The translations under genes were made by a program, and so were the position numbers. This document shows, piece by piece, positions 11,546 to 32,000 of a stretch of DNA of 32,000 nucleotides. Position 1 is the first letter of the stretch. Every line of letters starts with the position of its first letter. Where the stretch lies: contig JANQNC010000001.1 in the NCBI GenBank assembly GCA_028279745.1, positions 210,001-242,000 on the forward strand, given 5' to 3'. Under the pieces are notes generated by a model. That model searched no databases and was not told where the DNA came from. It worked only from the letters and a program-made list of their open reading frames with translations. This DNA is from Candidatus Nanoarchaeia archaeon (lineage in GTDB: Archaea > Nanobdellota > Nanobdellia > Woesearchaeales > JANQNC01).

Positions 11546-11968
11546 TTACAAATATTGTAAAACTTCATCAGGATTATGAGTCAATAGACGATCTGCTAGT
11601 TTAACTTCAGGCTCAGCAACATTGTGAACCATCAAAAACTCATCAGTATCTTCTTCAATCATCATTCCTTCAAGAACTTTCAATTCTTCAGGTGTGAAAA
11701 TGTTCTTTTCAATACCATACGCAATAGCTCCAGGGTTCTCATACAAAGAACTTGGTTGCTTGACTGCATTCTTGTACCATGCTCTTGCTTCTTCCTTCAA
11801 AGGGTCTTCAACTGCAGACTCTAGCTCCTGTCTAGTAACTCTGCCTTCATTAAACAACTGTTGTGCTTCTTTATAATGTTGTTCAATCATAACACCAGGG
11901 TGTCCTGCACTTGACAGAACGATAATAAAATTTTTTGCTGTATAATCCTTGTCTCCATTCATTTTCAT
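11546..11968 (-). CDS. hypothetical protein (140 aa), translationally coupled to yjbQ
   Basis: Its start overlaps the yjbQ stop as ATGA at 11965-11968. No recognisable motif. Confidence 0.6.
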
Positions 11969-14173: not shown

Positions 14174-14971
14174 ATGTTTAAGAATATGAGTAATAGGGTG
14201 CTGTTTGAGAAACCAAGACTAAAAACGCTGAATGGTCTAGGGTACAAATGTTTTGACTTACATTATCACACTAGATATTCTGATGGAAAGAATGGAGTGA
14301 AAATAGCGATAAAGAAAGCAAACCGGCTTAGATTTGGGTTTGCAGTCACAGACCATGATGAGATAAGGGGTGCAGTAGAAGCACACAGAAGAAAAGAATG
14401 CACAATCATACCTGGGATAGAGGTAACATCAAGAGAGCTGTATGATTTATTAGTTTATTTCTATGATGTCAATGATCTAATAGAATTTTATGTAAAACAC
14501 ATCAGGAAAGAGAAACAAAATCCCGGACTACTAAGAATCAAAAGAACAAAACTAAGTTTTGTAAGTGTGTTAGAAGCAGCAGAAGACTACAATTGTTTAA
14601 TCGCTCCCGCACACCCATTCGCAATGAGACCAAAAACATCTTATGAAATATTTGAAGAACACCCAAGCTTACTGAAAAAATTTGATGCAATAGAGACAAT
14701 AAACGGCACGATGACCCAAAACCAAAACATAAAATGTTTCAACTGGGCGCAAAAACTTGACAAACCTATGATCGGAGGGAGCGATGCACACGCAGTTGCA
14801 CAGCTAGGTTCAATAATAAACGCTGTAAAAGAAGATTCAGTTGAAGGTGTATTGAATGCAATAAAGAAAGAGAAACACATATTAATCGGAAAAGGGTTAA
14901 ATGTAGCATCACTATATTATCATAATCTAGAGGTAATAAGAAAAAACATATTTAACGAGATAAAACGATGA
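14174..14971 (+). CDS. PHP-domain metal-dependent phosphoesterase
   Basis: Canonical PHP motifs DLHYHTRYSDG, AVTDHD, APAHPF, GGSDAHA. Confidence 0.8.
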   Translation: MFKNMSNRVLFEKPRLKTLNGLGYKCFDLHYHTRYSDGKNGVKIAIKKANRLRFGFAVTDHDEIRGAVEAHRRKECTIIPGIEVTSRELYDLLVYFYDVNDLIEFYVKHIRKEKQNPGLLRIKRTKLSFVSVLEAAEDYNCLIAPAHPFAMRPKTSYEIFEEHPSLLKKFDAIETINGTMTQNQNIKCFNWAQKLDKPMIGGSDAHAVAQLGSIINAVKEDSVEGVLNAIKKEKHILIGKGLNVASLYYHNLEVIRKNIFNEIKR

Positions 14972-16753: not shown

Positions 16754-17710
16754 CTAATAAAAAATTGTTCTGACACGATGATAGGGTTTGTCATCAGGTG
16801 ATTTAGTTTGACCTTTAAGCCATAAATAATTGTCTATATCTTCAGAAGTTATTTTTGGGATGTTAGGTTTGATCTCATTTTTCATAAGCTCGATAGCCCA
16901 AACCATTCCTGCTCTAATTTCTATCTCTTCAGGACAGTCTTTCTTTAGCTCTATCTTATTGTCTACTTTTTCAGCAAGCTCATGAGAATATTTTAAAATT
17001 CCAAGCTTTCTTAGTGATTGAGGTATTTTATATTCCGCAAACGCAGTCAATTCGTCAATATTTGAAAAAAAACCTAATCCTTTGCTATCAAGACTTCTAG
17101 ATATGTCCCATATTGCCAGTTGAGCTTTTTTATGGAACATAACTTTCCTTCCATTGTAGACTGTAGAGTCATCATAATATTGAAAATCCGCAGTTATTAT
17201 CTCTAATAGTTTTAATGCGTCTTGGTCTGCACTCTTGACAAGATTAGAGCACTTTCCTTCATACTTCTCATTAATGACTCTGCCAACCTCTTTCAGGGCG
17301 TTTAATCTTTCATTAAAAAGAGGAATTTGAGTGTTGCCCCTTAAAATGTGAGATAAATCTTTTTCGGAAAGTGTTTCAAGATAGTTTGGATCCAGAATGC
17401 TGTATCCTTCTGAGACTGCTCGGTATAATGCAGCCATCTGTCCCCACGCACCATCTAACTTCTTGTCTTGATATTCAATAGTCCATTTCGGATCCCCCCA
17501 GTAACAGACATTAATAGAACAAAACACAAGATTGTAAGCAATGCTATCTTCATCATTTAGTTTAGGTCTTGTAAAAGGAGCCATATCCGTCCAAGGTTTG
17601 ATATCTTTCTCACTAAAGTTAGAAGAAACTTCTTTTAACTTTGTGGTGTCTATGTTGACCTGCTTTGATCTTTCTGCAACATATTTTATTCCTTCTAGCA
17701 CAGGATTCAT
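16754..17710 (-). CDS. queuosine-salvage family protein (DUF2419 / QNG1-like nucleoside-5'-phosphate glycosylase)
   Basis: From memory of human QNG1 (C9orf64): KVMFHKKAQLAIWD, LTAFAEYKIPQSLRKLGILKYS, EEIEIRAGMVWAIELM and the C-terminus YHRVRTIFY parallel the family blocks. The track ORF start at 17785 runs into the tRNA 3' flank. The ATG at 17710 (MNPVLEG) is preferred. Confidence 0.8.
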   Translation of the reverse strand: MNPVLEGIKYVAERSKQVNIDTTKLKEVSSNFSEKDIKPWTDMAPFTRPKLNDEDSIAYNLVFCSINVCYWGDPKWTIEYQDKKLDGAWGQMAALYRAVSEGYSILDPNYLETLSEKDLSHILRGNTQIPLFNERLNALKEVGRVINEKYEGKCSNLVKSADQDALKLLEIITADFQYYDDSTVYNGRKVMFHKKAQLAIWDISRSLDSKGLGFFSNIDELTAFAEYKIPQSLRKLGILKYSHELAEKVDNKIELKKDCPEEIEIRAGMVWAIELMKNEIKPNIPKITSEDIDNYLWLKGQTKSPDDKPYHRVRTIFY

Positions 17711-17757
17711 AAAGAAAAATAATATCAGATTATTTATAATAATTTTGAAAAATAAAA

Positions 17758-17876
17758 TGAGCCCGCGAGGACTTTCGACATTCATTGCGTTGAAAGCTAC
17801 GAACGCAGTGAGTGTGTTCGAACCCCGGTTTACCGGTCCGAAGCCGGTCGTACTGTCCAGGCTATACTACGGGCCC
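17758..17876 (-). tRNA. tRNA-Arg (anticodon UCG) with a 45-nt intron at position 59/60 in the T-loop; no encoded CCA
   Basis: The minus strand reads GGGCCCG-TA-GTAT-AGCCTGGACA-GTAC-G-ACCGG-CTTCGGA-CCGGT-AAAC-CGGGG-TTCGAA. The intron occupies 17816-17772, followed by T-CCTCG-CGGGCTC-A. All four stems pair, with one G-U each in the acceptor, D and T stems. A14, G15, G18G19 and U33 are present. The junctions fold as bulge-helix-bulge (see finding). Confidence 0.8.
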
Positions 17877-18682: not shown

Positions 18683-18964
18683 TCACTCTTTTCTTTTTAG
18701 AGTAATTTCGATTGTAGAAACTCTTACTTGTTTTCCTTCTTTGTTCTCAAACTCTTCAGAGTCAATCTTTATGTCTTTTACATCAACTTGGCCTTCAAGG
18801 AATCTTTTCACTGCAACTTCTGCAACATCAACTGCTCTGCTTATCAATTTTCCCCTAGCCTTAACAATCACTTCATCTGTCTGCTTTGTTGTGAATTGCA
18901 TAACTACTGCTGTTACATAATTCATAAAAGACTTCATACCAATAAAGATAGAGTTGTCTGCCAT
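18683..18964 (-). CDS. albA: DNA/RNA-binding protein Alba
   Basis: NSIFIGMKSFMNYVTAVVMQF, VIVKARGKLISRAVDVAEV and VSTIEITL are typical Alba blocks. 93 aa. Confidence 0.9.
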   Translation of the reverse strand: MADNSIFIGMKSFMNYVTAVVMQFTTKQTDEVIVKARGKLISRAVDVAEVAVKRFLEGQVDVKDIKIDSEEFENKEGKQVRVSTIEITLKRKE

Positions 18965-18986
18965 TTTTCTGTACCCCTGTTTTCAC

Positions 18987-19181
18987 TTAAATTTCTTTAG
19001 TGATCTTAACCAGCCTTGTTATGTAACCAGCTATACAGTTCACTAGTTTCTTTGAGTTAATCTCTGCCACTCTTGCCACTTTTTTCTTGTTCTCACTGAA
19101 ATCCTTGCCGAATTCAGGTCTGAACTCATTAAATAGCTTAAGTGATGTTCTCTTCACTAATGTCGTTTTTATACGTCCCAT
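18987..19181 (-). CDS. rps17e: 30S ribosomal protein eS17 (S17e)
   Basis: MGRIKTTLVKRTSLKLFNEF...FSENKKKV...SKKLVNCIAGYITRLVK. Confidence 0.9.
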   Translation of the reverse strand: MGRIKTTLVKRTSLKLFNEFRPEFGKDFSENKKKVARVAEINSKKLVNCIAGYITRLVKITKEI

Positions 19182-19223
19182 GCCCTTGAGGATTAAGCAG
19201 GGGTATATAAAGCTTGCTGTTTT

Positions 19224-20210
19224 CTATATATGCTTAAGGAACCAGTTATCAAAGTCTATGGCTAAACTCACCACCCCATCACTAGACACTTTTTTGTCTT
19301 GCAGAGCAAGGATCTGATCATTTATTCTTTTAACATCATAATCATTCCCAAGATATGTTGGAAGAATCTCTTTCAGTCTGTGAAGAACAGTTACAACCTT
19401 CTTATTCTTTTTAGTAAACTTCAGATCTTTAATCATCCGCACATACTTCCCAACATCATAAGCAGTTCTATCATCTACTTTTTTAGCAAGATTATCATCC
19501 AAAGGTTTTATCTTTGAAAAAATCTTAGCTTTGTCTTTAATAAAACCAAGGTCAAGAACCGGTTCTTTTAATCTTAAAAAGCTGACATGTCTTGAAAGAG
19601 TATCAACATTATCATAAAAACAACCTTTTTGTGAGAATCTAAAAGGCATATACTGAAAGTCATAAAGATACTGGATCAGATCTCCAAGATTATAGGTGTG
19701 TAATGTTGCTCCATTAATCTTCTTTTTCTCAACATAGCTACACCTGTACTTTCTCACTTCATCATCATCTACAATATTATACTGTTGATGGTTAATATCA
19801 AATTTATGATAGGTAGTATCAATCAATACATATCCATCTTTGTAATCAACAGCAGAACAAGCATGATTTACTTTGTCTCCTTCGTTGTCTTTTGATACAA
19901 ATGCAACCCTACTGTTAAAACCCAAAAATCTTGCCATAGTTACAAATAAAAAAGACTGTTCAATACAGTTACCTTTTTTCTCATTGAAAACATCCAAAGA
20001 ATTTCTTTGTCTTGGGTAATCAGAACTGTAAGCGATATTATCCTGAAAATAGTCAAATATTTTTTTCAGTTTATCGTGTAATTGGCCTTTGTTCATACTT
20101 TCTGCAATAGGGATAAGCTTATAGGGCATTATGAAAGGATCTGCATACTTTTTTTCAACTAAAGAGATAACATAGTCATTTTTCATACTACCATATATGC
20201 ATCTTATCAT
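19224..20210 (-). CDS. transglutaminase-like cysteine protease-fold protein with unknown C-terminal half
   Basis: Cys-His-Asp core in family order and spacing: KKGNCIEQSFLFVTMARFLG, VNHACSAV, GYVLIDTT. Confidence 0.75.
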   Translation of the reverse strand: MIRCIYGSMKNDYVISLVEKKYADPFIMPYKLIPIAESMNKGQLHDKLKKIFDYFQDNIAYSSDYPRQRNSLDVFNEKKGNCIEQSFLFVTMARFLGFNSRVAFVSKDNEGDKVNHACSAVDYKDGYVLIDTTYHKFDINHQQYNIVDDDEVRKYRCSYVEKKKINGATLHTYNLGDLIQYLYDFQYMPFRFSQKGCFYDNVDTLSRHVSFLRLKEPVLDLGFIKDKAKIFSKIKPLDDNLAKKVDDRTAYDVGKYVRMIKDLKFTKKNKKVVTVLHRLKEILPTYLGNDYDVKRINDQILALQDKKVSSDGVVSLAIDFDNWFLKHI

Positions 20211-20261
20211 TTAATAGAACTCACAAAGAAAAACCGAAAGAAATAACAAAAAGATCAGAAA

Positions 20262-22514
20262 TTAAGCAACAGCCCTGTATTCATCCTTAACCTTTATCCC
20301 TTTTGTAAGGATCTCTTTCAAGTTCTTAAGAGCTGATACTTCTGAAGGTTTTAATTTATAGTAATGATTTTCATTCTTTATCAATCTGTCAAGGTGTGCA
20401 TTTAATCTCTTGCTTTGTATATCCACAATATGTCTATTGTCATAAACTTTTTTGTATGCAAAGTCAAACTTCTCTTCAGTAAATGAGAAATTTGCAGTTG
20501 TTCTTCTCTCAAGAAGGGCATAATAACTATGTGTATTTTTCAACTGGTTCCAAGCACCAAGGCTTTGATAATAAAGAAGAACTTCAATCGTAAGCAGATC
20601 TTTCTGCTTCATAACATCTGCAACATAAGCTTCAGGCAACTCTTCTAGACTTTTTATTGTCTTAGAGTAATCAACATCATATTTGCTTTCAGGCAAATAA
20701 CCATTATATTTCTGACCGTTAAGAGTTTTATTAGTGTTAAACTCGACACGCGCATTGTGTCTTCTTATCACTGAACCTTCAAATCTCTTATCTATACTGT
20801 CAAAGAAGTCATTTCCGATATGGTCATATAGATAACTTAAGTTGTCAAGCACCCATTTGTCCCATATAACTCCATCCAGATCATACTGCAACATAACTTC
20901 TATAAACTCGTCGGGTTCCCCATTTTTACCCTCACACTTTATTTTATGCCTTACTAAGTGTTCAGTGTTTTCGATATCTGCATGACAATGTGCTACAGAC
21001 TCACTGCTTCTATAACAGTTAAGTACTGGTTTGAGTGATTCTTCAAGTCTTCTTTGAGTTTCTGTGTCAATCTCAAAATTACCTATGATATTGCTCTCTT
21101 CTTTTATCAGGTTGATCTTTTGTGCCATGAGCAGGTCACCACGACCAATCTCTTCTTTTCTAACCTTATCATCAAAGTATTTCCATAAGGCTAATCCAAT
21201 TACTGAATTATTAATCCTCTCTTGGTGATATCCTACAGGATTATGTTCTTCACTGTCAGAGCTGGCAGGTCGTACGATACCACACCATTTGCCACCCACA
21301 TCTCTAATGTCCTCCATGAAGAAACTTCCTGTTTCACTGTTTATATCAATTGTCTGATCACACAACCCCATCGATTCTTGCTTTTGTTCTGTCAGAATAT
21401 CAACTATCTCATCTAACATGCCTTTTCTCTTTTGCTCAGTAAGATTATCAACAATCTCTTCCAATACACTATCCCTATCAGGTAAATTAAAATCTTCCCC
21501 TTCTTTTTCTAACAGCTCTTTCTTTTTTCTATTCAAGTACTCTTCTACCATCTCTTTCTTATTTCTGCTTATATGATTTTTTAGCATGCCTATCAGTCTA
21601 GGAGCATTTTCCTCTTTTGCTTGTTTTAGACTATCATTAAAATAAAACATCTCAATATCGTTTGTTGGAGCCGGCAAGTTTTCCATGTAAATGTTGTCTT
21701 TCTCTGTGAAAACAGGCTTAACAACTCTAGCTTTTCTGCCGAAAAGGAACTTCATCTGTGCAGTCTCGTAATCACAACGGTCGTCCCTCTTCTTTCTCCT
21801 TCCACTAATATCATTAAATCCTGCGCTTTTAGGTATTATGTACTGCTTACGGAAGTAAGGTGTTGTGACGATGGTCTTATCTGAATCTGGATTTTTGACT
21901 TGAACCAGGATCTTAGAAAGCTTAGTGTATAAATGCCTTAAACCTTTATCATTAACAACATACTCAAATACTTTTATTTCAGCACCCGGTTTTGCTATCC
22001 CTTCATTCTCAAGCTGTGCACGATATGTTGTATTAACAAAGCTAAGAAACTTTTCATATTTTTCTCCCTTAAGTTCTATTTTTCTTTTCTCGTCCTTTTT
22101 AATCTCTTTAAAGTGTTCTACTGCCCCTTCAAGTGTCTTTGGCAAGACATCAGTTAGCTTCTCTTTGTCAAGCAGGTCATAAGCTCCCAACTTTATTGCT
22201 TCCTCTTTCCCCATCCCCCCTTTAAGTTTATCAGAGGCGGTCATCAAAATAACAGGTGTATTTATGTTTTTCTTACTGGTATATCTTAAGATATCAAAAC
22301 CACCTTGCTTTGGCATGACAACGTCACAAAGGATAACATCTACAGCTCTCTTATTTATCTGTTCGATTACCTTCTTTCCACTGCTGACTGGAATTATGTT
22401 ATAGTTAACATCAGAATTACTCTCTATTATTTGCGTAGCTAACTTAACCATATCAGGCTGATCATCAGCCACAATTATGTTGACAATATCTTTCTTCTCC
22501 ATTTTTTTAACCAT
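20262..22514 (-). CDS. response-regulator receiver domain fused to a large module ending in a PI3/PI4-kinase-like (type II PI4K-like) domain
   Basis: REC: IIVADDQPD, VDVILCDVVMPKQGG, PVILMTASD, AIKLGAYDLLDK. C-terminal blocks resemble type II PI4K as I recall it: TGSFFMED...GIVRPASSDSEEHNP...GYHQE (compare SGSYFVKD...AVFKPKNEEPYGHLNP...GYLSE), ADIENTEHLV (compare DRGNDNWLI) and YDLDGV (compare IDNGLAFP). The kinase assignment is an inference. Confidence 0.65.
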   Translation of the reverse strand: MVKKMEKKDIVNIIVADDQPDMVKLATQIIESNSDVNYNIIPVSSGKKVIEQINKRAVDVILCDVVMPKQGGFDILRYTSKKNINTPVILMTASDKLKGGMGKEEAIKLGAYDLLDKEKLTDVLPKTLEGAVEHFKEIKKDEKRKIELKGEKYEKFLSFVNTTYRAQLENEGIAKPGAEIKVFEYVVNDKGLRHLYTKLSKILVQVKNPDSDKTIVTTPYFRKQYIIPKSAGFNDISGRRKKRDDRCDYETAQMKFLFGRKARVVKPVFTEKDNIYMENLPAPTNDIEMFYFNDSLKQAKEENAPRLIGMLKNHISRNKKEMVEEYLNRKKKELLEKEGEDFNLPDRDSVLEEIVDNLTEQKRKGMLDEIVDILTEQKQESMGLCDQTIDINSETGSFFMEDIRDVGGKWCGIVRPASSDSEEHNPVGYHQERINNSVIGLALWKYFDDKVRKEEIGRGDLLMAQKINLIKEESNIIGNFEIDTETQRRLEESLKPVLNCYRSSESVAHCHADIENTEHLVRHKIKCEGKNGEPDEFIEVMLQYDLDGVIWDKWVLDNLSYLYDHIGNDFFDSIDKRFEGSVIRRHNARVEFNTNKTLNGQKYNGYLPESKYDVDYSKTIKSLEELPEAYVADVMKQKDLLTIEVLLYYQSLGAWNQLKNTHSYYALLERRTTANFSFTEEKFDFAYKKVYDNRHIVDIQSKRLNAHLDRLIKNENHYYKLKPSEVSALKNLKEILTKGIKVKDEYRAVA

Positions 22515-23451
22515 AACTTATCCTTGTAAGAGAGTGAACTGAAGACATAAGTGCTCTAAGCTGTCCCACCAGATCATAAATTATGCCCTGCTTTTCCTCG
22601 CTTTCGAAGAATGCGTCAATAGCCTTCATCACATCTTTCCTTTCATCAGAAACTGTGTAAGCTAGCATCTTGTCCTTTCCATAATAAGCTTTCATAGTGT
22701 CAAGATAGTTCTTCTCTATCTTTGAATAGATCGAGATTAAATCATCCTTGCCCCGCTTCTTAAGATCAAGCAGAGGGAAAATTCTTGAAAGACGCTTTAT
22801 AGAATCTGCGGTCTTTTCCAGATTGAATGCGAAGTTCCATGAACTCATCAATGCAACAAGATCCATCTTCATATTTTTCATGACAGACGGGTCAGTCATT
22901 GCAGACTTAACTGCTCGGAACACCAAGAATACTAATCTGTTAACATCATCATCTCTTTGGTCAAGATTTTCTGTTTCTTTACCTAAAAAAGAATTTTTAG
23001 TGTCAATAACCATCGACCTTATGATTATGTCTATTTTTCTAACAAGATTCACAATAGAAATATCTTTCATGTTAAGGAAATCTTTTGCAATTATCTTATC
23101 TCCACTTTCCTGCATTATTTCCAATGCAACTAAACCGTGAAGAATGTGTCTGATGCCTTTAGCTTTTTTCTTTATATCAGAACCAGAAATATAAAGTACA
23201 TTTACATTGTTAATGTATGATGAAATGATCTCTCTTTTTAGAAATTCTAAACTTTTTCCATCAGTGTTAATCTTTATCTCAACAGGATCTTTTTCAACTT
23301 TTGCAGAAGCAGGCGATAGTGTAAGTTTGTTTAACTCTTCAGAAACATAGATGATGTCGCCTTTGTTAAGGCTGTGCTTATCCATCCAGTCCCTTGGCAA
23401 AGAAAGGACGTAGGAAGATTTTCCAAATGCTATAATCTTTCTAGTTTCCAT
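22507..23451 (-). CDS. AbrB/SpoVT-domain + PhoU-domain regulator (archaeal phosphate-uptake-regulator type)
   Basis: N-terminus KIIAFGKSSYVLSLPRDWMDKHSLNKGDIIYV has a swapped-hairpin AbrB pattern. Two PhoU-like helical repeats follow (DDDVNRLVFLVFR...). Its stop overlaps the next gene's ATG by 8 nt. Confidence 0.8.
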   Translation of the reverse strand: METRKIIAFGKSSYVLSLPRDWMDKHSLNKGDIIYVSEELNKLTLSPASAKVEKDPVEIKINTDGKSLEFLKREIISSYINNVNVLYISGSDIKKKAKGIRHILHGLVALEIMQESGDKIIAKDFLNMKDISIVNLVRKIDIIIRSMVIDTKNSFLGKETENLDQRDDDVNRLVFLVFRAVKSAMTDPSVMKNMKMDLVALMSSWNFAFNLEKTADSIKRLSRIFPLLDLKKRGKDDLISIYSKIEKNYLDTMKAYYGKDKMLAYTVSDERKDVMKAIDAFFESEEKQGIIYDLVGQLRALMSSVHSLTRISYG

Positions 23452-23650
23452 ATTTTCACCATTTCTTTAGTTCGATTAATCACCCCGCAGGTAAGCAACG
23501 ACACCTTATTCTAACTATAAGTGTAAAATGTCTATTTACTCATCCCCCAAACATATACCCCCTATGCAGTATATAAAGAATAGAGAGTAACTATATATAT
23601 TTAAATCTTACTATACTATAGTAGAATACATATAATCAGGGGTGGTTGCT

Positions 23651-23800
23651 ATGAAAGATATATTTTATGAAATTGAGAAAGATCTGCTTCCAGACCGGTT
23701 AAAACAGGTGAAAACAGACGAATGGGACACTGAGAAAGGTATTGATGAAATAGATGAATGGGACACATCATGGGTAAAGGAAACCGATACCGGAAGCTAA
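23651..23800 (+). CDS. candidate small acidic Trp-rich protein (49 aa)
   Basis: Below the track cutoff. SD GGGGTGG lies 6 nt before the ATG. MKDIFYEIEKDLLPDRLKQVKTDEWDTEKGIDEIDEWDTSWVKETDTGS. It appears paralogous to the next ORF. Confidence 0.4.
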   Translation: MKDIFYEIEKDLLPDRLKQVKTDEWDTEKGIDEIDEWDTSWVKETDTGS

Positions 23801-23878
23801 AAACATATAGTGTATTTGTTGTATATAAGATAGACATATAAGCAAAGTTAGCTTATAAACTGATAGGGGGTGCATATT

Positions 23879-24034
23879 ATGAAAGATAAATTGTTCAAGA
23901 GATTGGATGAGGAAAATATCTTTTTAGATGATATGGACATATATACAGAAGAGGCCCGAGAAAAAGAAGTTGAAAATGATGAACTAGACTGCTGGGAAGC
24001 TGCCTGGATGCAGGGCTACGAAGAAGCAAGATAA
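23879..24034 (+). CDS. candidate small acidic Trp-rich protein (51 aa)
   Basis: SD GGGGGTG lies 6 nt before the ATG. MKDKLFKRLDEENIFLDDMDIYTEEAREKEVENDELDCWEAAWMQGYEEAR. A strong hairpin plus T-tract follows. Confidence 0.45.
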   Translation: MKDKLFKRLDEENIFLDDMDIYTEEAREKEVENDELDCWEAAWMQGYEEAR

Positions 24035-24060
24035 AACTCATTCCTCATAACTGCTGAGTC

Positions 24061-24100
24061 GGCTATCCTCTCGCGAGGATAGCCCCTCCGTGTTTTATTT
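24061..24100 (+). terminator. stem-loop plus T-tract terminator-like element
   Basis: Perfect 10-bp stem GGCTATCCTC / GAGGATAGCC with loop TCGC (24061-24084), then CCTCCGTGTTTTATTT. Confidence 0.55.
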
Positions 24101-24209
24101 AATATAGAGTGGAAAATGATTTTTTTAGATATATTAATTATTTTCTATATGGAAAATAAATGGGCTATGACAAGCTTTAAATAAGCAAATTCTCAGGAAT
24201 GGCTTTTAA

Positions 24210-24998
24210 ATGGAAAAAGTAATTTTTACAGATTTAGATGGCACATTGTTGGATCACGATACTTATTCTTATGCAGCAGCAAAAGATGCTTTGAAGATAG
24301 TGAAAAAGCAGAAAATTCCTTTGGTGTTTTGTACAAGTAAAACAAGAGCAGAAATTGAGCATTACAGAAAAAAGTTTGGCAACAAAGATCCATTCATAGT
24401 GGAAGATGGCGGAGCAATATTTATCCCAACAGGATACTTTGATTTTGAATTTAAGAATGATGGCAAAGTTGGCAAATACTATGTGATCGAGTTAGGGACT
24501 CACTATGACAGATTGTTAAGAGTTGCAGAAGCGATGGAGAAAAAGTTTAGTCTAATAAAAACATTTCACGATATGACTGTAAAAGAGACAGCAAAAGATA
24601 CAGGGATGACTGTTGCGCAATCAAGAAGAGCCAAAAAAAGAGAATATGATGTTGTGTTTAAAATTTTGAAAAAGGACGAGGTTGAGAAAGAGATTCTTAG
24701 AGAGATCAAGAAACACAAACTGAATTATGTTATTGGCGGAAGATACTACCATATTGTCGGAGATAATGACAAAGGAAAAGCTGTAAAAATATTACTTAAA
24801 TTATTTAGAAAGAAATTTGGAAAAGTAAAATCAATAGGATTGGGAGATTCACAAAATGATTTCTCAATGTTAGAAAGCGTTACAGTGCCTTACTTAGTCA
24901 AGAAAAAATCCGGAAGGTATTCTTCCAAAAAATACAATCACGCAGATGGAATAGGACCAAAAGGCTGGAATAGAGCAGTCAAAAAGGAGTTGGAATAA
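24210..24998 (+). CDS. HAD-IIB phosphatase of the mannosyl-3-phosphoglycerate phosphatase (MPGP/YedP) family
   Basis: VIFTDLDGTLLDHDTYSY, PLVFCTSKTRAEIE, IVEDGGAIF, GLGDSQND. A TATA (TTTAAATA) ends 27 nt upstream, which suggests a near-leaderless mRNA. Confidence 0.8.
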   Translation: MEKVIFTDLDGTLLDHDTYSYAAAKDALKIVKKQKIPLVFCTSKTRAEIEHYRKKFGNKDPFIVEDGGAIFIPTGYFDFEFKNDGKVGKYYVIELGTHYDRLLRVAEAMEKKFSLIKTFHDMTVKETAKDTGMTVAQSRRAKKREYDVVFKILKKDEVEKEILREIKKHKLNYVIGGRYYHIVGDNDKGKAVKILLKLFRKKFGKVKSIGLGDSQNDFSMLESVTVPYLVKKKSGRYSSKKYNHADGIGPKGWNRAVKKELE

Positions 24999-26242
24999 TG
25001 ATCGATAAGAAAAAAGCAGATGCAATCTACAGAAAAAGCATTCAAGTTCTGAAAACAGTGCAGTTACCAAACGGAGGATGTTTAGCGACACCACCAGGAG
25101 CAAGATACCCTTACGTTTATCCTAGAGATCACGCAATAATAATTTTAGGCATGATATCTGCAGGGATGATGAAAGAAGCAAAGAAAGGAATTGATTTCGT
25201 GATGAAATCAGAACTAGAATCAGGAGCATTTCCACAAAGACTTGATAAAAAAGGAAACGATGCATCATACAAACCGATACAGATAGACGGAACAGGATTA
25301 ATTCTATATGCATATGCAGAATATGTTAAAGCAACAAATGACACCAAGTTTGCAGAGAAACACTGGGACAGAGCAAAAAGAGCAGTACACTATATTGTAG
25401 AAAACTTCTATGGCGAAAAACAATTGATCTTCACACCAAACTCAATACACGAGTTCCCACCAACAGAAGAAGGATTAGAGATCTGGGCTAATTGTACTTG
25501 TCATGCGGCACTTGAAAAAATGTACGAGCTTGGTGAATTATTAAATCATAAACACAACGAATGGAAGGAATTAGCCATAACAGTAAAAGAAGGAATAATG
25601 AGATATATGTGGAACGATAGGATTGGAACTTTTATCAAAAATGTAAGAATAAAAGAATCAAGTTCTGCTTTAGTTGACACAGATGCATCAGAATATGCAG
25701 TTGCAGATTATGGAGTTTTACCTGATGACGATCCTCGGGTTAGGTCCACAGTTAAAGATATTGAAAAAGATCTGTGGAACAAAGACTTAGGAGGATTATG
25801 CAGATATCCAAAATATGAAGGAAGAAATAATGGTGGATGGGGCCCGTGGCCGCACTTTACATTAATGGTTGCAAGACATTTTATTCGGTTGAGTGATAAG
25901 AAACGAGCTGACAAGTACATGAAATGGGTGATAGACCACACTTATGGCAATCTGATTCCAGAACATTTAGCGACAAAAAAAGAATTCGAAGAATATGTAA
26001 CAGACTTTACACAAGCTGGTTTGTTAAGGAAGGATAGGATGATAATGATAGAGAATGTAAGAAAACATCCTATGTTTAAGAAAAAAGGAGTTGCTTATGT
26101 GATAATACCTTTAGCATGGCCACATGCAGAATTCATCAGAACGTATAATTTGTATAAAGAAGCTTTCATCAACGGGAAGAAAGTTAAGAAGAAGGCAGTT
26201 AAGAAAAAAGCTAAAAAGAAAGTAACTAAAAGAAAAAAATAG
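24998..26242 (+). CDS. GH15-like (alpha/alpha)6-barrel glycoside hydrolase, catalytic domain only, with poly-Lys C-terminal tail
   Basis: YPYVYPRDHAIIILG, IQIDGTGLILYAY, GGLCRYPKYEGRNNGGWGPWPHFTLMVARH. C-terminal KKVKKKAVKKKAKKKVTKRKK. Start overlaps the upstream stop (TAATG). Confidence 0.75.
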   Translation: MIDKKKADAIYRKSIQVLKTVQLPNGGCLATPPGARYPYVYPRDHAIIILGMISAGMMKEAKKGIDFVMKSELESGAFPQRLDKKGNDASYKPIQIDGTGLILYAYAEYVKATNDTKFAEKHWDRAKRAVHYIVENFYGEKQLIFTPNSIHEFPPTEEGLEIWANCTCHAALEKMYELGELLNHKHNEWKELAITVKEGIMRYMWNDRIGTFIKNVRIKESSSALVDTDASEYAVADYGVLPDDDPRVRSTVKDIEKDLWNKDLGGLCRYPKYEGRNNGGWGPWPHFTLMVARHFIRLSDKKRADKYMKWVIDHTYGNLIPEHLATKKEFEEYVTDFTQAGLLRKDRMIMIENVRKHPMFKKKGVAYVIIPLAWPHAEFIRTYNLYKEAFINGKKVKKKAVKKKAKKKVTKRKK

Positions 26243-26254
26243 ATTGATGACAAA

Positions 26255-27157
26255 ATGGAATTCAAGAAAAGAAAAGAACCTATACTGACACCAGATCCTT
26301 CTCTAAAACATGAAAGGTTTTGCGTGTATAACCCTTGTGCAGTAAAACATAAAGGTAAAATTTACATGATCTATAGAGCAGAAGGGAAATATGATGAATA
26401 TGTTTCTACATTATGTCTTGCTACAAGTACAGATGGAATCAACTTTAGAAAGTATAAGAAAAACCCAATCATAAAACCCACAAGAAAAGAAGAAAAAAGA
26501 GGTTGTGAAGATCCAAGAATCACAAAAATAGGAGATACTTTCTACTTAACGTATACTGCGTTTGAAAAAGCTAACCCTGGAGAGAAAGGGAAAATAAATT
26601 TATCACTAGCAACATCAAAAGATCTAATCCATTGGAAGAAAAAAGGAATTATAATCAAGAATTACAAATCAGGAATTATCCTGCCTGAGAAAGTTAATGA
26701 TGAGTACCTGATGTTCATTGGAGATACAAACATCAAAGTGGCAAGATCAAAGGATTTATTGAGGTGGAAGTTAGACAAAAAACCCTTGATGAGTGTTCGC
26801 TCAAAAAAGTTTGATTCTAAATTAGTTGAAACAGGACCTCCACTGATTTATGACAATAACAAAATACTATTCATTTACAATTCAGCAGATAAGTTGATCA
26901 GGTATCATGTTGGATATTGTGTTCTGGATAGGCTTAACCCCTGCAAGATATTTAAGAGGTGCTCTGAACCAATATTAAGTCCAACAGAACAATTTGAATT
27001 GTATGGAAAAGTAAATAATGTAGTGTTTGCAGAAGGACTAGTAGAACATAAAGGAAAATATTTCTTGTATCATGGTGGCGCAGACAAATGTGTTGGTGTT
27101 GCAATTGCAAACAAAAAAGACGTATTTAAACTAATCAGAAATTCTCAATCTTACTAA
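26255..27157 (+). CDS. GH130 family glycoside phosphorylase/hydrolase (DUF377)
   Basis: FCVYNPCAVKHKGKIYMIYRAEG, LATSTDGINF, GCEDPRITKIGDTFYLTYTAF, YHGGADKCVGVA. Confidence 0.85.
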   Translation: MEFKKRKEPILTPDPSLKHERFCVYNPCAVKHKGKIYMIYRAEGKYDEYVSTLCLATSTDGINFRKYKKNPIIKPTRKEEKRGCEDPRITKIGDTFYLTYTAFEKANPGEKGKINLSLATSKDLIHWKKKGIIIKNYKSGIILPEKVNDEYLMFIGDTNIKVARSKDLLRWKLDKKPLMSVRSKKFDSKLVETGPPLIYDNNKILFIYNSADKLIRYHVGYCVLDRLNPCKIFKRCSEPILSPTEQFELYGKVNNVVFAEGLVEHKGKYFLYHGGADKCVGVAIANKKDVFKLIRNSQSY

Positions 27158-27431
27158 CTTTTTTAGTAGTTAACATATAATACAAGGTGCAAACCACACC
27201 ATCCCCATTAGACTTCTTTTTAAAATCTCTAATCATCCTATCATCACGATCCTTAACGACATAAAACTCTTCCATGCCTTTGTAAAGAACCTGAAGAACT
27301 GCTTTTTGTTGATTGCTAGCTTTCATAGTTCTCAAAGCTGCATCCAAAGAGCCTTCTTTGTTTTCAGCCATGATCTCTTTAATCCTTTCCGTTGTATAGT
27401 TAGGCATAAGTTGAATGGCAAGAGAATTCAT
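27135..27431 (-). CDS. hypothetical protein (98 aa)
   Basis: ORF only. Its 3' end overlaps the convergent GH130 gene by 23 nt. No motif recognised. Confidence 0.4.
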   Translation of the reverse strand: MNSLAIQLMPNYTTERIKEIMAENKEGSLDAALRTMKASNQQKAVLQVLYKGMEEFYVVKDRDDRMIRDFKKKSNGDGVVCTLYYMLTTKKVSKIENF

Positions 27432-27442
27432 ATATAAAATTT

Positions 27443-27856
27443 ATGAACAAAAACTATTTAAATAGGAAAACTAGGTTATATATTATGGTATACACACCAC
27501 AAAAGCATCCGAAGCAAGCATTGATACTGATAACAGTTATTGCATCAGCAGGAATACTGGGCGGGTTATACATTTCAGAATACTTCTTAGGAATTGCACT
27601 GATGTTCTGGATGCAGTATACAGCAGTGTTAAGTTATTTACAATTTAAACACAAACACGAAAAAATAAAAGACGGAATAAATGTTTATTTACTAAATCCT
27701 ATTTTGAGATTCTTTATCTTTGAACTAATCGCATTTTGGGGACTAGCAATGTTGATATGGTGGGAAACAAAACTAGTCGGAATATTAGCACTGGCAGCAT
27801 GGTGGATATTCTCATTGAACTTCTATTTCTATTACAAAAAGAGAACTAGTAAGTAA
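27443..27856 (+). CDS. small integral membrane protein (about 4 TM helices)
   Basis: Hydrophobic segments ALILITVIASAGILGGLYI, FLGIALMFWMQYTAVL, FFIFELIAFWGLAMLIWW, GILALAAWWIFSLNFYF. Confidence 0.6.
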   Translation: MNKNYLNRKTRLYIMVYTPQKHPKQALILITVIASAGILGGLYISEYFLGIALMFWMQYTAVLSYLQFKHKHEKIKDGINVYLLNPILRFFIFELIAFWGLAMLIWWETKLVGILALAAWWIFSLNFYFYYKKRTSK

Positions 27857-28757
27857 GAGTCGCTTCTAAAAATCCGTAATCTTTTTTCATAGCAACACTT
27901 AGTGACTTATCCTCGTTAGTGTAACCAAGCCCACAAGTCAATACTTTTCTATTGCCCGCATTATCCATGCCTGCACGCAAAGCAAAGTTGCCAACTTTCT
28001 GTTCAATACCTGCTCTAATGCCTGGACTCCCCACTACAATAAAATTCAAATATTTAGCAAACGGTGCCAAAGCACTATAATAGCTAGAAGCTAATGTCAA
28101 GTCTCCTAGTTTATTATTTATTGTGTAACTAATGCCCGGTCTTAAATTTAATGCCTTAACATGCAAAGTAGACCAAGTCCTTGCCAAAACTCCCAGCCTT
28201 AATCTGTCATCATCAGTCAAAAGATTGCTTTTTTGGAATAAACCACTTAGCTCATAATCTAAAAACCTTCCTTGTCTTTTTTTATCATCACTCGTTTCAT
28301 GAATCCTCTTTGGAGTTATTGCTCCGCCAACTGAAAAGTTATCATTAATCTTGAAACCCGCAGCAATCTTTAACCAGTTCATAGTTTCGTTATAATCTGC
28401 ACCCTCTTTTATTATGTATTTTCTTCCTTCAAAAGAAAGATCCTTTATGTCTTGGCTAGAGTTCATCAACTGAAGACCCAAACCTAACCTGCCCAGTAGT
28501 GGAGTAGCAAAAGATAAAGTGTTATCATATCTATATGATTCACAATTACCTACAAGTTTTGTAAAAGTAAGAGCAGGTCTTTTTAGAAAAGGTATCTTTG
28601 CTTGATTCCAGTAGGTCGAGTTAGCATCATCACTTATAGTTATGCCCGCGTGACCCATAGCCATCTGCTTAGCACCAGTGCAAGCTTGATTCACAGATGT
28701 GTGTAAAAGTAAAGCAATCAGTGCAGTTGACAATGTTCGTTTTAGTTTTTTGATCAT
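27846..28757 (-). CDS. exported bacterial outer-membrane-like beta-barrel protein (FadL/TraF/PorV-like N-terminal motif)
   Basis: Signal peptide MIKKLKRTLSTALIALLLHTSVNQA. Then GAKQMAMGHAGITISDDANSTYWNQAKIPF, which resembles the G.R..GMGGA..A..D....NPA motif of these barrels. About 14 alternating amphipathic strands (RLGLGLQLMN, WLKIAAGFKIN, NFALRAGMDN, LTCGLGYTN...). C-terminus is LEATLTY, ending in an aromatic residue. Confidence 0.65.
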   Translation of the reverse strand: MIKKLKRTLSTALIALLLHTSVNQACTGAKQMAMGHAGITISDDANSTYWNQAKIPFLKRPALTFTKLVGNCESYRYDNTLSFATPLLGRLGLGLQLMNSSQDIKDLSFEGRKYIIKEGADYNETMNWLKIAAGFKINDNFSVGGAITPKRIHETSDDKKRQGRFLDYELSGLFQKSNLLTDDDRLRLGVLARTWSTLHVKALNLRPGISYTINNKLGDLTLASSYYSALAPFAKYLNFIVVGSPGIRAGIEQKVGNFALRAGMDNAGNRKVLTCGLGYTNEDKSLSVAMKKDYGFLEATLTY

Positions 28758-29854
28758 CTTTTTCTTACCATATATACTTTATCAGGAAGGTTTCCAAATT
28801 CAAACTTCTCTCTAGATGCTTTCATCTCGCAATGGGATTCTGTAGGCACTATGTATATTTGTACTCCCCCCATACTTGGCAATGGACGCATCACTTGAAC
28901 GATGTCTTTAGGCAGTACAAATCTGCTGTTCATCTTATCTATCAGAACAGGATTATACTCTCCGGTTATAGAACCTGTAAACTTATCTCTAGAAAACATT
29001 TCATGATACCATTTCATCCTGTTAAATGAATCATTAAGTGTTACAAATCTTTTGTCAGTTATCTTAATGCCTTTTTCTTCTCCAAAATAGAAATATTGGT
29101 CTCTCCATCTTAAAGAATTAAATAATCCTTCAGCAAAAGCTTCACAAAGATCTTCAGTCTCCTCATCGGTTCTTGTAACAATTGTTGTGTTCTTGTTTGC
29201 TAGTTCGCTAAAACCGCCAGTTCTGCAGCCGTCAACAATCATTACATTGCCTTTTGTTTTGAGATGTTTAAAGTGGTAATTAAATCCTTTAGGATTCCAA
29301 ACAATCAGGTCTTCTGGATCTCCGCTTGATCCCAGAGTAAGTATGTTGCTTGTTTTTTTCTTTTCATTATAATATCCATGGCCTGTGATGTACAAAAAGA
29401 ATTCGCTGTTAGAATCTAGTTTTTTCGCACCATCCAATAAGTATCTTAGATTTTTTGAAGTTGGCGGTCCGATTATACGGGGGACTGTCAAAACAGGATA
29501 CTTATGCATAACATTGTACACGATTGATGTTAAATCTCCCCCCGTCTCTGCTTTCTTTCCTTTCGCGACTTTTTCTATGTTTTCTTCATCTTGGTAGTTT
29601 GCATAAGGAACGCTAAGAACTTTTATGTCATTCTCATTAAACCCTATCCACCTGAAAAAATTGTATGAACGCAACACATTATCCATGTGATGATCTTCTT
29701 CAGCATGATTAACAATAACAGCCAAACCTTTCCTGCTTCCTGTGTTGTACTTTGAGTTTCTTGATGTTGCTTGGTATAAACCAGGAGCACATGATGAAAC
29801 TAAAGCTGCTAAACCTGCGCCGCCTGCTGTTGTTAGAAAGTTTCTTCTGTTCAT
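28754..29854 (-). CDS. Tat-signal lipoprotein, clan CD (legumain/gingipain/caspase-like) cysteine peptidase
   Basis: Twin-arginine signal MNRRNFLTTAGGAGLAALVSSC with a lipobox-like Cys. Catalytic dyad context FFLYITGHGYY and VMIVDGCRTGGF in clan CD order. ATGA overlap with the barrel gene. Confidence 0.7.
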   Translation of the reverse strand: MNRRNFLTTAGGAGLAALVSSCAPGLYQATSRNSKYNTGSRKGLAVIVNHAEEDHHMDNVLRSYNFFRWIGFNENDIKVLSVPYANYQDEENIEKVAKGKKAETGGDLTSIVYNVMHKYPVLTVPRIIGPPTSKNLRYLLDGAKKLDSNSEFFLYITGHGYYNEKKKTSNILTLGSSGDPEDLIVWNPKGFNYHFKHLKTKGNVMIVDGCRTGGFSELANKNTTIVTRTDEETEDLCEAFAEGLFNSLRWRDQYFYFGEEKGIKITDKRFVTLNDSFNRMKWYHEMFSRDKFTGSITGEYNPVLIDKMNSRFVLPKDIVQVMRPLPSMGGVQIYIVPTESHCEMKASREKFEFGNLPDKVYMVRKR

Positions 29855-29856
29855 TT

Positions 29857-30372
29857 CTATACCTCGATATTTAATTCATAACCCAACCTATTTGCGATTA
29901 GTAAAACAGCCTGGTCAACTGCTTTACTTCTTGAAGCATATCCTGGGAAACCTTTAACAACTTCCAGTTTTGGGTTATCTAACCCACATAATAATCTGGT
30001 TTCTGGCGTTATTAACATCCCAATGTATGTTTTGTTTTCTTTGAAGTGTTCTTTGAATCCTTCAAGATCTGCTTCTGAAAAGTTTCTTGCGTAATATTCT
30101 CCGAACTTTTCTATAGTTCCTTTTGAATGTGTGTGGAATTTAACAAAGTTATATTCTGGATTTTTTTCAAAAAATTCATTGACTATGGCCATTCTTTCAG
30201 GAGTTGAGCTTACGTGTCCTTCTGTTCCTTTTCCTGTGATAAATATTGTTTCAATAGGACAGTATTCTTCTTTGGGTCTGTATAATAAAACACCATTCAC
30301 TTCAGATTTTAGATTAGCAAGGCTAACCAATCTCTGTTCTAGTTCTTTTGGCAGTAATACTGTTCGTTTCAT
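29857..30372 (-). CDS. JAB/MPN-like (JAMM variant) protein
   Basis: Upstream Glu (SEVNGVLLY), FHTHS, and SEAD. These match the E...HxH...SxxD elements of JAMM, but the spacer between HxH and SxxD is longer than canonical. Confidence 0.5.
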   Translation of the reverse strand: MKRTVLLPKELEQRLVSLANLKSEVNGVLLYRPKEEYCPIETIFITGKGTEGHVSSTPERMAIVNEFFEKNPEYNFVKFHTHSKGTIEKFGEYYARNFSEADLEGFKEHFKENKTYIGMLITPETRLLCGLDNPKLEVVKGFPGYASRSKAVDQAVLLIANRLGYELNIEV

Positions 30373-30920
30373 CTTTCTACAGCTCCTTCTTTAACCATAC
30401 TGGAACCTTTCATATCAATAGCATCTAAAGGTATTAACAGTTCAGGAATCTCATATATCTCTCCTGACTTTTTGTTTTCCCAAGATGACCTGCAGTTCAC
30501 TTTGCCAGTTGGCTTGTATTCCTGAAGAAAGTTTTCAAGAATGTGAGAATTATTCCAATATTCAGGAATCTTTTCTGCTCTTCTTAGGCTTACAATCTCT
30601 CCAGCAAGCAGGTGGGGTGCTACAACACATCTTTTCGGGTTAACTGAAATTTCAGCCCAGTAAGATTTTTCTAACTCGCCCTGGCTTGGTTTACTTAAGT
30701 AAGCATAAACTGAATTAAGTATTGGGTTTCCATTCCAAATCTCCCCGTATTTTTCTGGCGCGGCTTGACCAAACTTTTCTAGAATCGCTAGCCCCAGTTT
30801 AGCACCTGCTTTCATTGAATCAGTTCCGTTTCTTAGCCATTCCTCAAGGCCTTCACGATAACTTCTGAACTCCAATCTAGGAAAATTTCCCATGTTTCTG
30901 TAAACTTTAACTTGAGTCAT
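30369..30920 (-). CDS. hypothetical protein (183 aa) of the operon
   Basis: The track start is GTG at 30929. The ATG at 30920 forms an ATGA overlap with the upstream stop and has GGGTGG 6 nt upstream, so it is preferred. No motif recognised. Two Cys (NPKRCVVAPH, VNCRSSW). Confidence 0.6.
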   Translation of the reverse strand: MTQVKVYRNMGNFPRLEFRSYREGLEEWLRNGTDSMKAGAKLGLAILEKFGQAAPEKYGEIWNGNPILNSVYAYLSKPSQGELEKSYWAEISVNPKRCVVAPHLLAGEIVSLRRAEKIPEYWNNSHILENFLQEYKPTGKVNCRSSWENKKSGEIYEIPELLIPLDAIDMKGSSMVKEGAVER

Positions 30921-31384
30921 CTTTTCCACCCTTGTTTAATTAAAGATTTGATGTATACGTTTAAGGTGTATATCCTCCTGTCGTCTTCAAAATCCATCTC
31001 TTCAAAAGTAAAGAGAGTATTATGACGGTTAAGAACCCCCACATATATTTCCTTAAGTGTGCAGTCATTATAAGGCCATCTAGGCATCTCTTCGTTCTGT
31101 TTAAGTTTTAATAATTCATCCAAATCCTCTTGAGTGTAAAGTATAATTGAATCAATACTTTTTCCCCTTAAAGAAAAGCCGATAGATCTTTGGTTGCCAT
31201 CCAACACAAGATATTTATCTGTCTGTTTATAGGGTGTTGTTACAATTGGAAAATTAAAAAATTTTAGGCATTCTTCAGGTGCAGAATCAGGGTTGTCGAT
31301 CATCTTGATAACATTATCTGAAGTATCGTTACGTATATCGTCAACAGGTACAAGCTGTTCTGCTATAAGTTTTGTTCTTTTCAT
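30917..31384 (-). CDS. ParB/sulfiredoxin-fold (ParB N-terminal domain-like) protein
   Basis: LVPVDDIRND ... FPIVTT ... YLVLDGNQRSIGF follows the ParB-N pattern (target-proximal Arg, then a hydrophobic-DGxxR box). 155 aa, with no HTH evident. Confidence 0.5.
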   Translation of the reverse strand: MKRTKLIAEQLVPVDDIRNDTSDNVIKMIDNPDSAPEECLKFFNFPIVTTPYKQTDKYLVLDGNQRSIGFSLRGKSIDSIILYTQEDLDELLKLKQNEEMPRWPYNDCTLKEIYVGVLNRHNTLFTFEEMDFEDDRRIYTLNVYIKSLIKQGWKR

Positions 31385-32000
31385 TTCCTTATCCTCACCA
31401 TCATTGCATAATCATAATCATCTAGGTTGATAAAAGAAAAATTCTCTTTAGGTACAAAGTTCAAATAATCAAGAACTCTCTGTTCTGTGTATCTTTGAGA
31501 CCACCAGCCTTCTTTTGTTGATGTAAAACAATCTTCTTTATTGGATGTTATTGTCCAACCAAAGTTTCTGTAAGTCTCTTCCTGTTTCTTTCTAGTTTCA
31601 TCAGTATCTATGTACATAGATCCGATTATTATCTCTCCATCAGGATTAAGCATCTCATGTGCTTGTTTGAATATACTTGTGAATTTGTCATTTTCTGTCA
31701 GATCATACCCCTGCGTGTAGTTTTTGATATCATACCCAAAAGGATAGAAGTTACCTGCAGTGAACCAGGTTGTGATTATCATATCATATTTTTTGTCTAA
31801 AGTTTTAAGATCTACAGCATCTAGTTGTGTTATGTTTACTTTACCTTCAAGACCCATATCACTGACAACTTCAGTTGAGATATCAATACAATCTTGAGCT
31901 ACATCTATTCCCTCATACGCTCTTATGGCATTTGATATATCTTGATGTTTGAATAATTCCTTAATCAGTCTTCCATCTCCAACACCAATATCAAGTATTG
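31381..32000 (-). CDS. class I SAM-dependent methyltransferase; 5' end beyond window
   Basis: The frame stays open upstream of the track Met to the window edge. My translation from 31998 is ILDIGVGDGRLIKELF (motif I), then YEGIDVAQ, LDAVDL, YDMIITTWF. No DPPY/NPPY or PCQ DNA-methyltransferase motif is visible. Confidence 0.8.
   Translation of the reverse strand, partial: ILDIGVGDGRLIKELFKHQDISNAIRAYEGIDVAQDCIDISTEVVSDMGLEGKVNITQLDAVDLKTLDKKYDMIITTWFTAGNFYPFGYDIKNYTQGYDLTENDKFTSIFKQAHEMLNPDGEIIIGSMYIDTDETRKKQEETYRNFGWTITSNKEDCFTSTKEGWWSQRYTEQRVLDYLNFVPKENFSFINLDDYDYAMMVRIRK

Follow-up and report, generated by a model that had tools for sequence, protein, structure and literature searches.

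The window analyzed here is a stretch of 32,000 nucleotides (nt) from the genome of a Candidatus Nanoarchaeia archaeon (GenBank assembly GCA_028279745.1, contig JANQNC010000001.1, positions 210,001 to 242,000). At its right-hand end lies a block of six minus-strand genes, designated g1 to g6 in their 5' to 3' order, which a preliminary description had singled out as a possible uncharacterized system. All six open reading frames (ORFs) are present. The first, g1 (31381..32000, its 5' end beyond the window), encodes a class-I S-adenosylmethionine-dependent methyltransferase, of which 205 codons are visible. It is followed by two orphans predicted to be cytosolic, g2 (30917..31384; 155 aa) and g3 (30369..30920, or to 30929 with a GTG start; 183 aa, or 186 aa from the GTG), and by g4 (29857..30372), which encodes a divergent JAMM/MPN+ metallopeptidase of a small DPANN-restricted family. 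The last two genes encode exported proteins: g5 (28754..29854), a lipoprotein of 366 residues with a twin-arginine translocation (Tat) signal and a putative caspase-like (clan CD) His/Cys dyad, and g6 (27846..28757), a 303-aa PorV/FadL-type 14-stranded beta-barrel with a Sec signal.

The junctions within the block are as tight as the preliminary description had reported. ATGA start/stop overlaps occur on the minus strand at 31381-31384, 30917-30920, 30369-30372 and 28754-28757, and a gap of only 2 nt (29855-29856) separates g4 from g5. Two of the overlaps hinge on the choice of start codon, those at the 5' ends of g3 and g6. The longest ORF of g3 begins at the GTG at 30929; the ATG at 30920 carries a Shine-Dalgarno-like GGGTGG motif 6-11 nt upstream and is also the start in an independent gene call. 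For g6, the gene call on an independent (Logan) assembly places the start at TTG 28733 (295 aa), 24 nt downstream of ATG 28757. Because M1 and K4 of the version starting at ATG 28757 are invariant among the four homologues, the overlapping ATG is favored. At the other end of the block, the g1 frame stays open to 31998 and the methyltransferase motif I (ILDIGVGDG) lies at the very edge of the window. This indicates that g1, and possibly the operon as well, extends upstream, in agreement with the earlier statement that the gene block runs past the window.

The compactness of the block can be set against that of its surroundings. Gaps of 2 nt or less are found at 5/5 block junctions versus ~5/21 same-strand junctions elsewhere in the window (Fisher p=0.004). 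Overlaps of 4 nt also occur elsewhere, at 413-416, 11965-11968 and 14968-14971; tight packing is enriched in the block, yet not unique to it. Motifs of the GGTG/GGAG/GAGG type precede the start codons of g2 to g5 by 6-14 nt, including a GGTGAGG upstream of the g2 ATG. A single transcript with translational coupling is probable, a reading of the sequence that is consistent with both the overlaps and the Shine-Dalgarno-like motifs. In codon-position GC content, the six ORFs are all similar to the prolyl-tRNA synthetase (ProRS) gene, and a chance origin of ORFs of 155-366 codons at 35% GC is very unlikely.

The block sits in an archaeal genome. The window encodes S17e, an Spt5-NGN/KOW protein, an FKBP26-type chaperone and an archaeal/eukaryotic-type ProRS, confirming the archaeal context described previously, and FtsZ is encoded there as well. 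The host is a DPANN archaeon, Woesearchaeota/Nanoarchaeia-like. GC content is flat across the block (0.34-0.37) and like that of the rest of the window, no tRNA genes or Rfam matches were found in the window, and the downstream flanks of the block are ordinary sugar-metabolism genes. A contig from the independent Logan assembly (12.8 kb, ending inside g1) is 100% identical to window positions 18811-31621 and places the block on one physical stretch with S17e. On these grounds, the bacterial-type genes were judged not to stem from misassembly or contamination. The g6 homologue of a second DPANN metagenome-assembled genome (MAG) is likewise confirmed by a second assembly, at 4-7 kb from L21e, Rpb4, eIF2-gamma and S6e.

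The methyltransferase assignment of g1 was upheld by two Pfam families above their thresholds, Methyltransf_31 (E=1e-8; 35.4 bits versus 27) and Methyltransf_25 (E=8.8e-8; 33.2 bits versus 27). Matches to more specific families are weak (CpaM, 1e-6; the methyltransferase domain of PADLOC mad2, 3.7e-10; a PHROG tRNA methyltransferase, 1.6e-4), and g1 could therefore not be placed in a subfamily. No relatives of g1 were found in a scan of IMG/VR. Like g2, g3 and g4, g1 contains no hydrophobic segments.

The two genes that follow are orphans. The label "ParB-like" previously given to g2 did not hold up: the protein has no Pfam match at E<=10, and its only family hit is a weak one to NCBIfam SerK, a ParB/Srx-fold kinase (E=0.0033), over 43 residues (42-84) that contain LVLDGNQR. 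When 1.84 billion representatives were searched exhaustively with phmmer, no real homologue came up, only g2 itself and short multi-copy stretches in long repetitive proteins, which were judged spurious. No relatives were found in Joint Genome Institute (JGI) metagenomes or, by tblastn, in phages, and a sequence search of the PDB gave noise only. A ParB-like identity of g2 is thus unproven. For g3, the sole match among 5.8 billion proteins was g3 itself, and there was no match in Pfam, NCBIfam, PADLOC or PHROG.

In contrast to the orphans, g4 can be assigned by its fold and motif. The preliminary description had called it a JAB-type protein, and the AlphaFold model (predicted local distance difference test score, pLDDT, 92.1) bears this out with a Foldseek probability of 1.0 to JAMM/MPN proteins. 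The 50 top matches listed from the PDB are all JAMM/MPN-domain proteins, with E-values down to 2.6e-7; they include Sst2/AMSH, BRCC36, Rpn11 and Pyrococcus JAMM1 (E ~1e-7 to 1e-5), along with CSN5 and the Caldiarchaeum Rpn11 homologue. The expected catalytic signature, E24/H80/H82/S99/D102, is conserved: across the 23 aligned sequences of the family, one of them from the window itself, H80 and H82 do not vary, and E24, S99 and D102 are kept in at least 90%. The spacer between the HxH and SxxD elements is atypically long at 16 residues, compared with ~7-10 residues in the canonical spacer. No Pfam JAB match was obtained for g4 even at E<=10, nor any NCBIfam match, and a search of PDB sequences with the family profile found nothing above noise. 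By the criteria of the structural model and the motif, g4 represents a divergent JAMM family recognizable only by these two features. All taxon-labelled homologues come from Woesearchaeota or Nanoarchaeia, with Nanosalina among the relatives, except for one from Patescibacteria. The IMG/VR scan held no relatives of g4, and no ubiquitin-like or E1 gene was found near g4 in 11 loci (the window and 10 related loci).

Several relatives of g4 stand in contexts of their own. In Candidatus Nanosalina sp. J07AB43 (GL982576.1; L011:6158-7825), the g4-family JAMM domain is fused C-terminally in a 555-aa protein whose residues 211-304 match RamC_N, the N-terminal domain of class III lanthipeptide synthetases (E=4e-9). 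Such a fusion hints that the family may have a role in peptide processing. At a second locus (L010:9157-12123), a nitroreductase gene lies upstream of the g4 homologue and a gene for an alpha/alpha-toroid (prenyltransferase/TED-like) protein overlaps it downstream; at a third (L013:3987-5866), the gene for a PPDK_N-domain protein overlaps the stop codon of the g4 homologue. The enzymes closely flanking the g4 homologues at these last two loci recall peptide or metabolite modification, and no consistent theme runs through the ten g4 loci.

The description of g5 as a Tat lipoprotein was corroborated by a TAT_signal match (E=8.6e-4), by TIGR01409 above its cut-off and by a lipobox; the N-terminus, MNRRNFL...LVSSC22, combines the twin-arginine signal with the lipobox. 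Its assignment to the clan-CD peptidases fared less well. The His/Cys dyad is present in the canonical order, in the motifs FFLYITG-H159-G and VMIVDG-C210-RTGG, each behind a hydrophobic strand. The sole family match, Peptidase_C14 (E=0.002-0.005), reaches 17.1-18.1 bits against a gathering cut-off of 21.4, so that the clan-CD label is weakly supported. Searches for relatives of g5 found none in plasmids (tblastn), JGI metagenomes or IMG/VR, and a sequence search of the PDB yielded only noise.

The final gene, g6, encodes a barrel of the bacterial outer-membrane type, as had been proposed. It matches the NCBIfam PorV/PorQ family (E=9e-14), as do all 4 members of its own family; the score of 51.8 bits, against a curated cut-off of 90, covers only the N-terminal half of the model. 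An AlphaFold model of g6 (pLDDT 73.5, predicted template modelling score 0.73), based on the four sequences of the family, shows 14 strands. [quoted passage not shown] The family profile finds a weak PorV match among PDB sequences (E=0.17), and a fold search of BFVD with the barrel gave nothing convincing. Following the signal peptide, the family shares an invariant A-C-T-G-x-K-Q...YWNQA block, and an aromatic C-terminal residue is found in 3/4 members. The strand faces show hydrophobic alternation, but 93/2000 shuffles reach the observed value, and membrane embedding of the barrel is weakly supported. No genes for an outer membrane, for the beta-barrel assembly machinery (BAM) or for T9SS partners were found in the window, and no outer membrane, BAM or T9SS is known from archaea.

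Only 3 homologues of g6 were found among 5.8 billion proteins. One, with 46% identity, is encoded in the second DPANN MAG, which derives from the same sample (GCA_028279725.1, JANQNE010000011.1; L014:10001-17329). There, the g6 homologue is followed by genes for a 1074-aa Schlafen/AlbA_2 + HATPase_c_4 protein and a type IIG-like N6-methyltransferase/restriction enzyme, an arrangement resembling a defense island. Another homologue, with 34% identity, lies on a 25.7 kb contig (JGI 3300022538, Ga0247413_1265861; L016:8521-9459, and L017) that looks viral or mobile, with two YopX genes, a PD-(D/E)XK protein and dozens of ORFs of 50-120 aa; PHROG searches with its large ORFs returned no informative matches. 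The IMG/VR scan with g6 gave a single match, a weak relative of its N-terminal half (residues 28-156, 30% identity) on a 47 kb viral contig (IMGVR_UViG_3300025767_000034; L018:10001-10381). No description of an archaeal PorV/FadL-type barrel family was found in the searchable literature. A paper on the "lipid-trapping" porin PopA (PMC12228718) mentions DPANN only in connection with a possible relative from Altiarchaeales, and the family concerned is a different one, with 16 strands.

Whether the six genes form a unit beyond this genome was addressed through the neighborhoods of their homologues. For g4, the comparison set consisted of 10 loci, 8 DPANN loci from a genome scan and 2 metagenomic contigs with its closest relatives (59% and 57% identity); for g6, it consisted of two independent contexts on four contigs (L014/L015 and L016/L017). 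Co-occurrence was searched by tblastn (E<=0.1), phmmer --max and all-vs-all clustering of the neighbors. Neither tblastn nor phmmer detected g1, g2, g3, g5 or g6 near the g4 homologues in any of the loci (10/10 negative), and the all-vs-all comparison revealed no neighbor family, besides g4 itself, that is shared by any of the loci. Their neighbors differ from locus to locus (Dus, mTERF, Toprim, UPP synthase, nitroreductase, PPDK_N, Fic and others). The two g6 contexts gave the same picture: no g5-like gene, other block gene or exported partner lies beside the barrel gene in either of them. In the second MAG, the homologue adjoins the gene for a cytosolic TIM-barrel protein, downstream of cytosolic proteins and near ribosomal genes.

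These results do not bear out the proposal that the six genes constitute one system. Two of them, g2 and g3, are orphans, and the homologues of g4 and g6 occur without the other five genes. A gene order recurring in related genomes, which the preliminary description had suggested looking for, was not found, and as far as the families allow a comparison the genes never occur together elsewhere, an outcome that the preliminary description had itself named as one that would refute its reading. Its remark that the block matches no described defense system is borne out: only the methyltransferase domain of g1 matches PADLOC (mad2), and the other five proteins have no match at E<=1. A reading of the block as a defense system was rejected, as no PADLOC system signature was found.

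The block is best explained as real and probably co-transcribed, a set of unrelated modules whose juxtaposition is strain-specific within a compact DPANN genome, rather than as a conserved multi-protein system, a reading to which we assign a probability of about 0.62. The four cytosolic and two exported proteins would then act independently. The JAMM protein g4 would be a zinc (iso)peptidase working on its own, found among DPANN archaea in varied genomic settings, and g5 and g6 would be cell-envelope proteins, the former a membrane-anchored cysteine peptidase and the latter a barrel for a hydrophobic ligand or for anchoring. The start/stop overlaps would reflect general genome compaction and translational coupling within one mRNA, not a shared pathway.

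Several observations weigh against this juxtaposition. Five consecutive junctions of 2 nt or less are tighter than the window average (p ~0.004), and such packing is how a stoichiometrically coupled complex would be expected to look. The co-occurrence test covers g4, g6 and the close relatives of g5, and g2 and g3 lack homologues. A unifying gene, such as an E1 or a ubiquitin-like gene, is possible beyond the upstream edge of the window. Finally, the order of a peptidase gene followed by a PorV-like barrel gene mirrors that of porU-porV and hints at a functional link between g5 and g6.

This last point leads to the most attractive partial alternative, in which g5 and g6 form a two-protein surface module like PorU-PorV and g1 to g4 are unrelated passengers. 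The clan-CD peptidase would have the barrel as its anchor or partner, at the surface of the cell or in a host-cell membrane, and would process or attach surface proteins. The assignment of g6 to the PorV family by both sequence and fold, the clan-CD dyad and export signal of g5, and the ATGA overlap of the two genes all speak for such a module. In Porphyromonas and Flavobacterium, porU, which encodes a gingipain-like cysteine peptidase, adjoins porV, and PorV has been proposed as the anchor of PorU (PMC5445135). The pairing is, however, absent from both other g6 contexts (L014/L015 and L016/L017), g5 shows no similarity to family C25/PorU, its one family match being the sub-threshold one to C14, and, at 366 residues, is far from the 128-kDa PorU, and no further T9SS gene was seen in the window. 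Nor are archaea known to have an outer membrane or a BAM by which a barrel could be inserted. On this evidence the module appears unlikely, and it is compatible with the explanation favored here for g1 to g4. Broader still is the proposal that all six genes, together with genes upstream of the window, form a new lineage-restricted system. One form of it would be a pathway for modification and processing: the methyltransferase, the two orphans and the JAMM protein would bring a product or protein to maturity, and the peptidase and the barrel would then act on it at the surface. The uninterrupted overlaps of the translational-coupling type across five junctions favor such a system, and some g4 homologues do lie in contexts resembling peptide modification (the Nanosalina RamC_N-JAB fusion, L010 and L013). 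It is nonetheless improbable, since no gene pair recurs in the 12 comparison contexts, no precursor peptide, E1 or ubiquitin-like gene was seen in the 12 kb downstream, and neither PADLOC nor NCBIfam shows a system signature. Moreover, with two orphan members, this system would exist in a single known genome.

Another explanation sees the block as part of a mobile or conflict island, either an integrated element or a defense/counter-defense locus, which would explain why the block holds orphans and a methyltransferase and why its barrel gene has a counterpart on a virus-like contig. The two orphans are indeed adjacent, the g1 methyltransferase domain resembles mad2, one g6 homologue lies on the contig with YopX, PD-(D/E)XK and many small ORFs, and the homologue at L014 adjoins the Schlafen/AlbA_2 ATPase and the type IIG-like restriction-modification gene. 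In the visible part of the region, however, neither the block nor its flanks hold an integrase or a tRNA gene, base composition does not shift and no element boundaries were seen, PHROG matches are confined to a generic methyltransferase, and g1, g4 and g5 have no relatives in IMG/VR. With sugar-metabolism genes as its downstream flanks, the block has only a slim chance of belonging to such an island, and the juxtaposition of independent modules in a compact genome is retained as the preferred reading.

The downstream boundary of the block is formed by a plus-strand gene (27443..27856) for a 137-aa multi-pass membrane protein, taken from the ORF list, with a strongly hydrophobic segment (KD19 2.28). 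It converges with g6, the 3' ends of the two genes overlap by 11 nt, and it is not a member of the block. Beside it, a minus-strand ORF of 98 aa with no assigned function (27135-27431) overlaps the end of a GH130 gene by 23 nt. Together, the two overlaps leave no space for a conventional terminator after g6.

Elsewhere in the window, several minus-strand genes drew attention independently of the block. The product of the gene at 16754-17785 strongly resembles the queuosine salvage protein family (PF10343, E=2.8e-78); archaea are generally described as using archaeosine, not queuosine. The gene at 5450-6118 encodes a class III adenylate/guanylate cyclase catalytic domain (PF00211, E=5e-23) as a stand-alone protein, in what is a reduced archaeal genome. 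Two genes at 20262-23451 overlap by 8 nt and form another tightly coupled pair: the upstream one encodes a 314-aa MazE/AbrB-like + PhoU-like protein, the other a protein of 750 aa in which the only recognized domain is a response-regulator receiver domain at the N-terminus. Finally, the sole recognized feature of a 1060-aa protein encoded at 1751-4933 is a sub-threshold bacterial Ig-like (Big_3_2) domain, from which it may be a large surface protein.

The novelty of the block lies in its parts, which are new or divergent members of known superfamilies together with two orphans; the way they are arranged does not amount to a new kind of system. As a system the block carries little weight, being known from one genome, and it would be misleading to treat it as a new pathway. 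The JAMM family of DPANN archaea is missed by current sequence models, and it bears on how widely ubiquitin-like or other isopeptide chemistry is spread in reduced archaea. The truly unexpected item is the PorV/FadL-type barrel family in DPANN archaea, encoded in at least two DPANN genomes beside archaeal marker genes; barrels of this type count as a defining trait of diderm bacteria and organelles. Provided that the archaeal barrels are expressed and inserted into a membrane, they raise testable questions on the envelope architecture and host contact of episymbiotic archaea. A more speculative and rather doubtful extension is that this family, with its signal peptide and invariant N-terminal cysteine, its presence in DPANN archaea and in a virus-like element and the coupling of g6 to g5, works at the interface between symbiont and host. 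The barrel might insert into or dock onto the host envelope, where it could hold the peptidase in place or import hydrophobic nutrients, lipids for example. DPANN archaea are generally regarded as unable to make their own lipids.

The g4 protein shares its fold and the E...HxH...SxxD signature with the JAMM/MPN+ metalloproteases (the HvJAMM1/PfJAMM1 desampylases, Rpn11 and AMSH/Sst2), and it is a small, single-domain protein like the archaeal JAMM1 proteins. Unlike the known members, it is invisible to the Pfam JAB model, has the 16-residue spacer and lacks a ubiquitin-like or E1 neighbor, and its family is, going by the taxon labels, restricted to DPANN archaea. The g5 protein resembles the caspase/metacaspase-like branch of clan CD (Peptidase_C14), the only one matched, in its His-Gly and Asp-x-Cys motifs after hydrophobic strands; it differs in its sub-threshold score and in being, as judged from its N-terminal signal, Tat-exported and lipid-anchored rather than cytosolic.

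As a pair, g5 and g6 recall porU-porV of the T9SS of Bacteroidota in that a PorV-family barrel gene is directly preceded, on the same strand, by a gene for a clan-CD-type peptidase. They depart from it in that g5 is C14-like rather than C25 and one third the size of PorU, in that there is no cargo system based on a C-terminal domain, and in that the pair is not kept at the other g6 loci. On its own, g6 has in common with the PorV/PorQ and FadL/TodX barrels its 14 strands, an N-terminal segment before the barrel, the signal peptide and the C-terminal aromatic residue. In contrast to PorV/PorQ, it is encoded in archaeal genomes, scores below the curated cut-off, is shorter (303 aa versus ~345-400) and belongs to a family of 4. 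A further distinction from PorV/PorQ is the invariant cysteine directly after the g6 signal peptide, a position in the sequence that suggests a lipid anchor or a disulfide.

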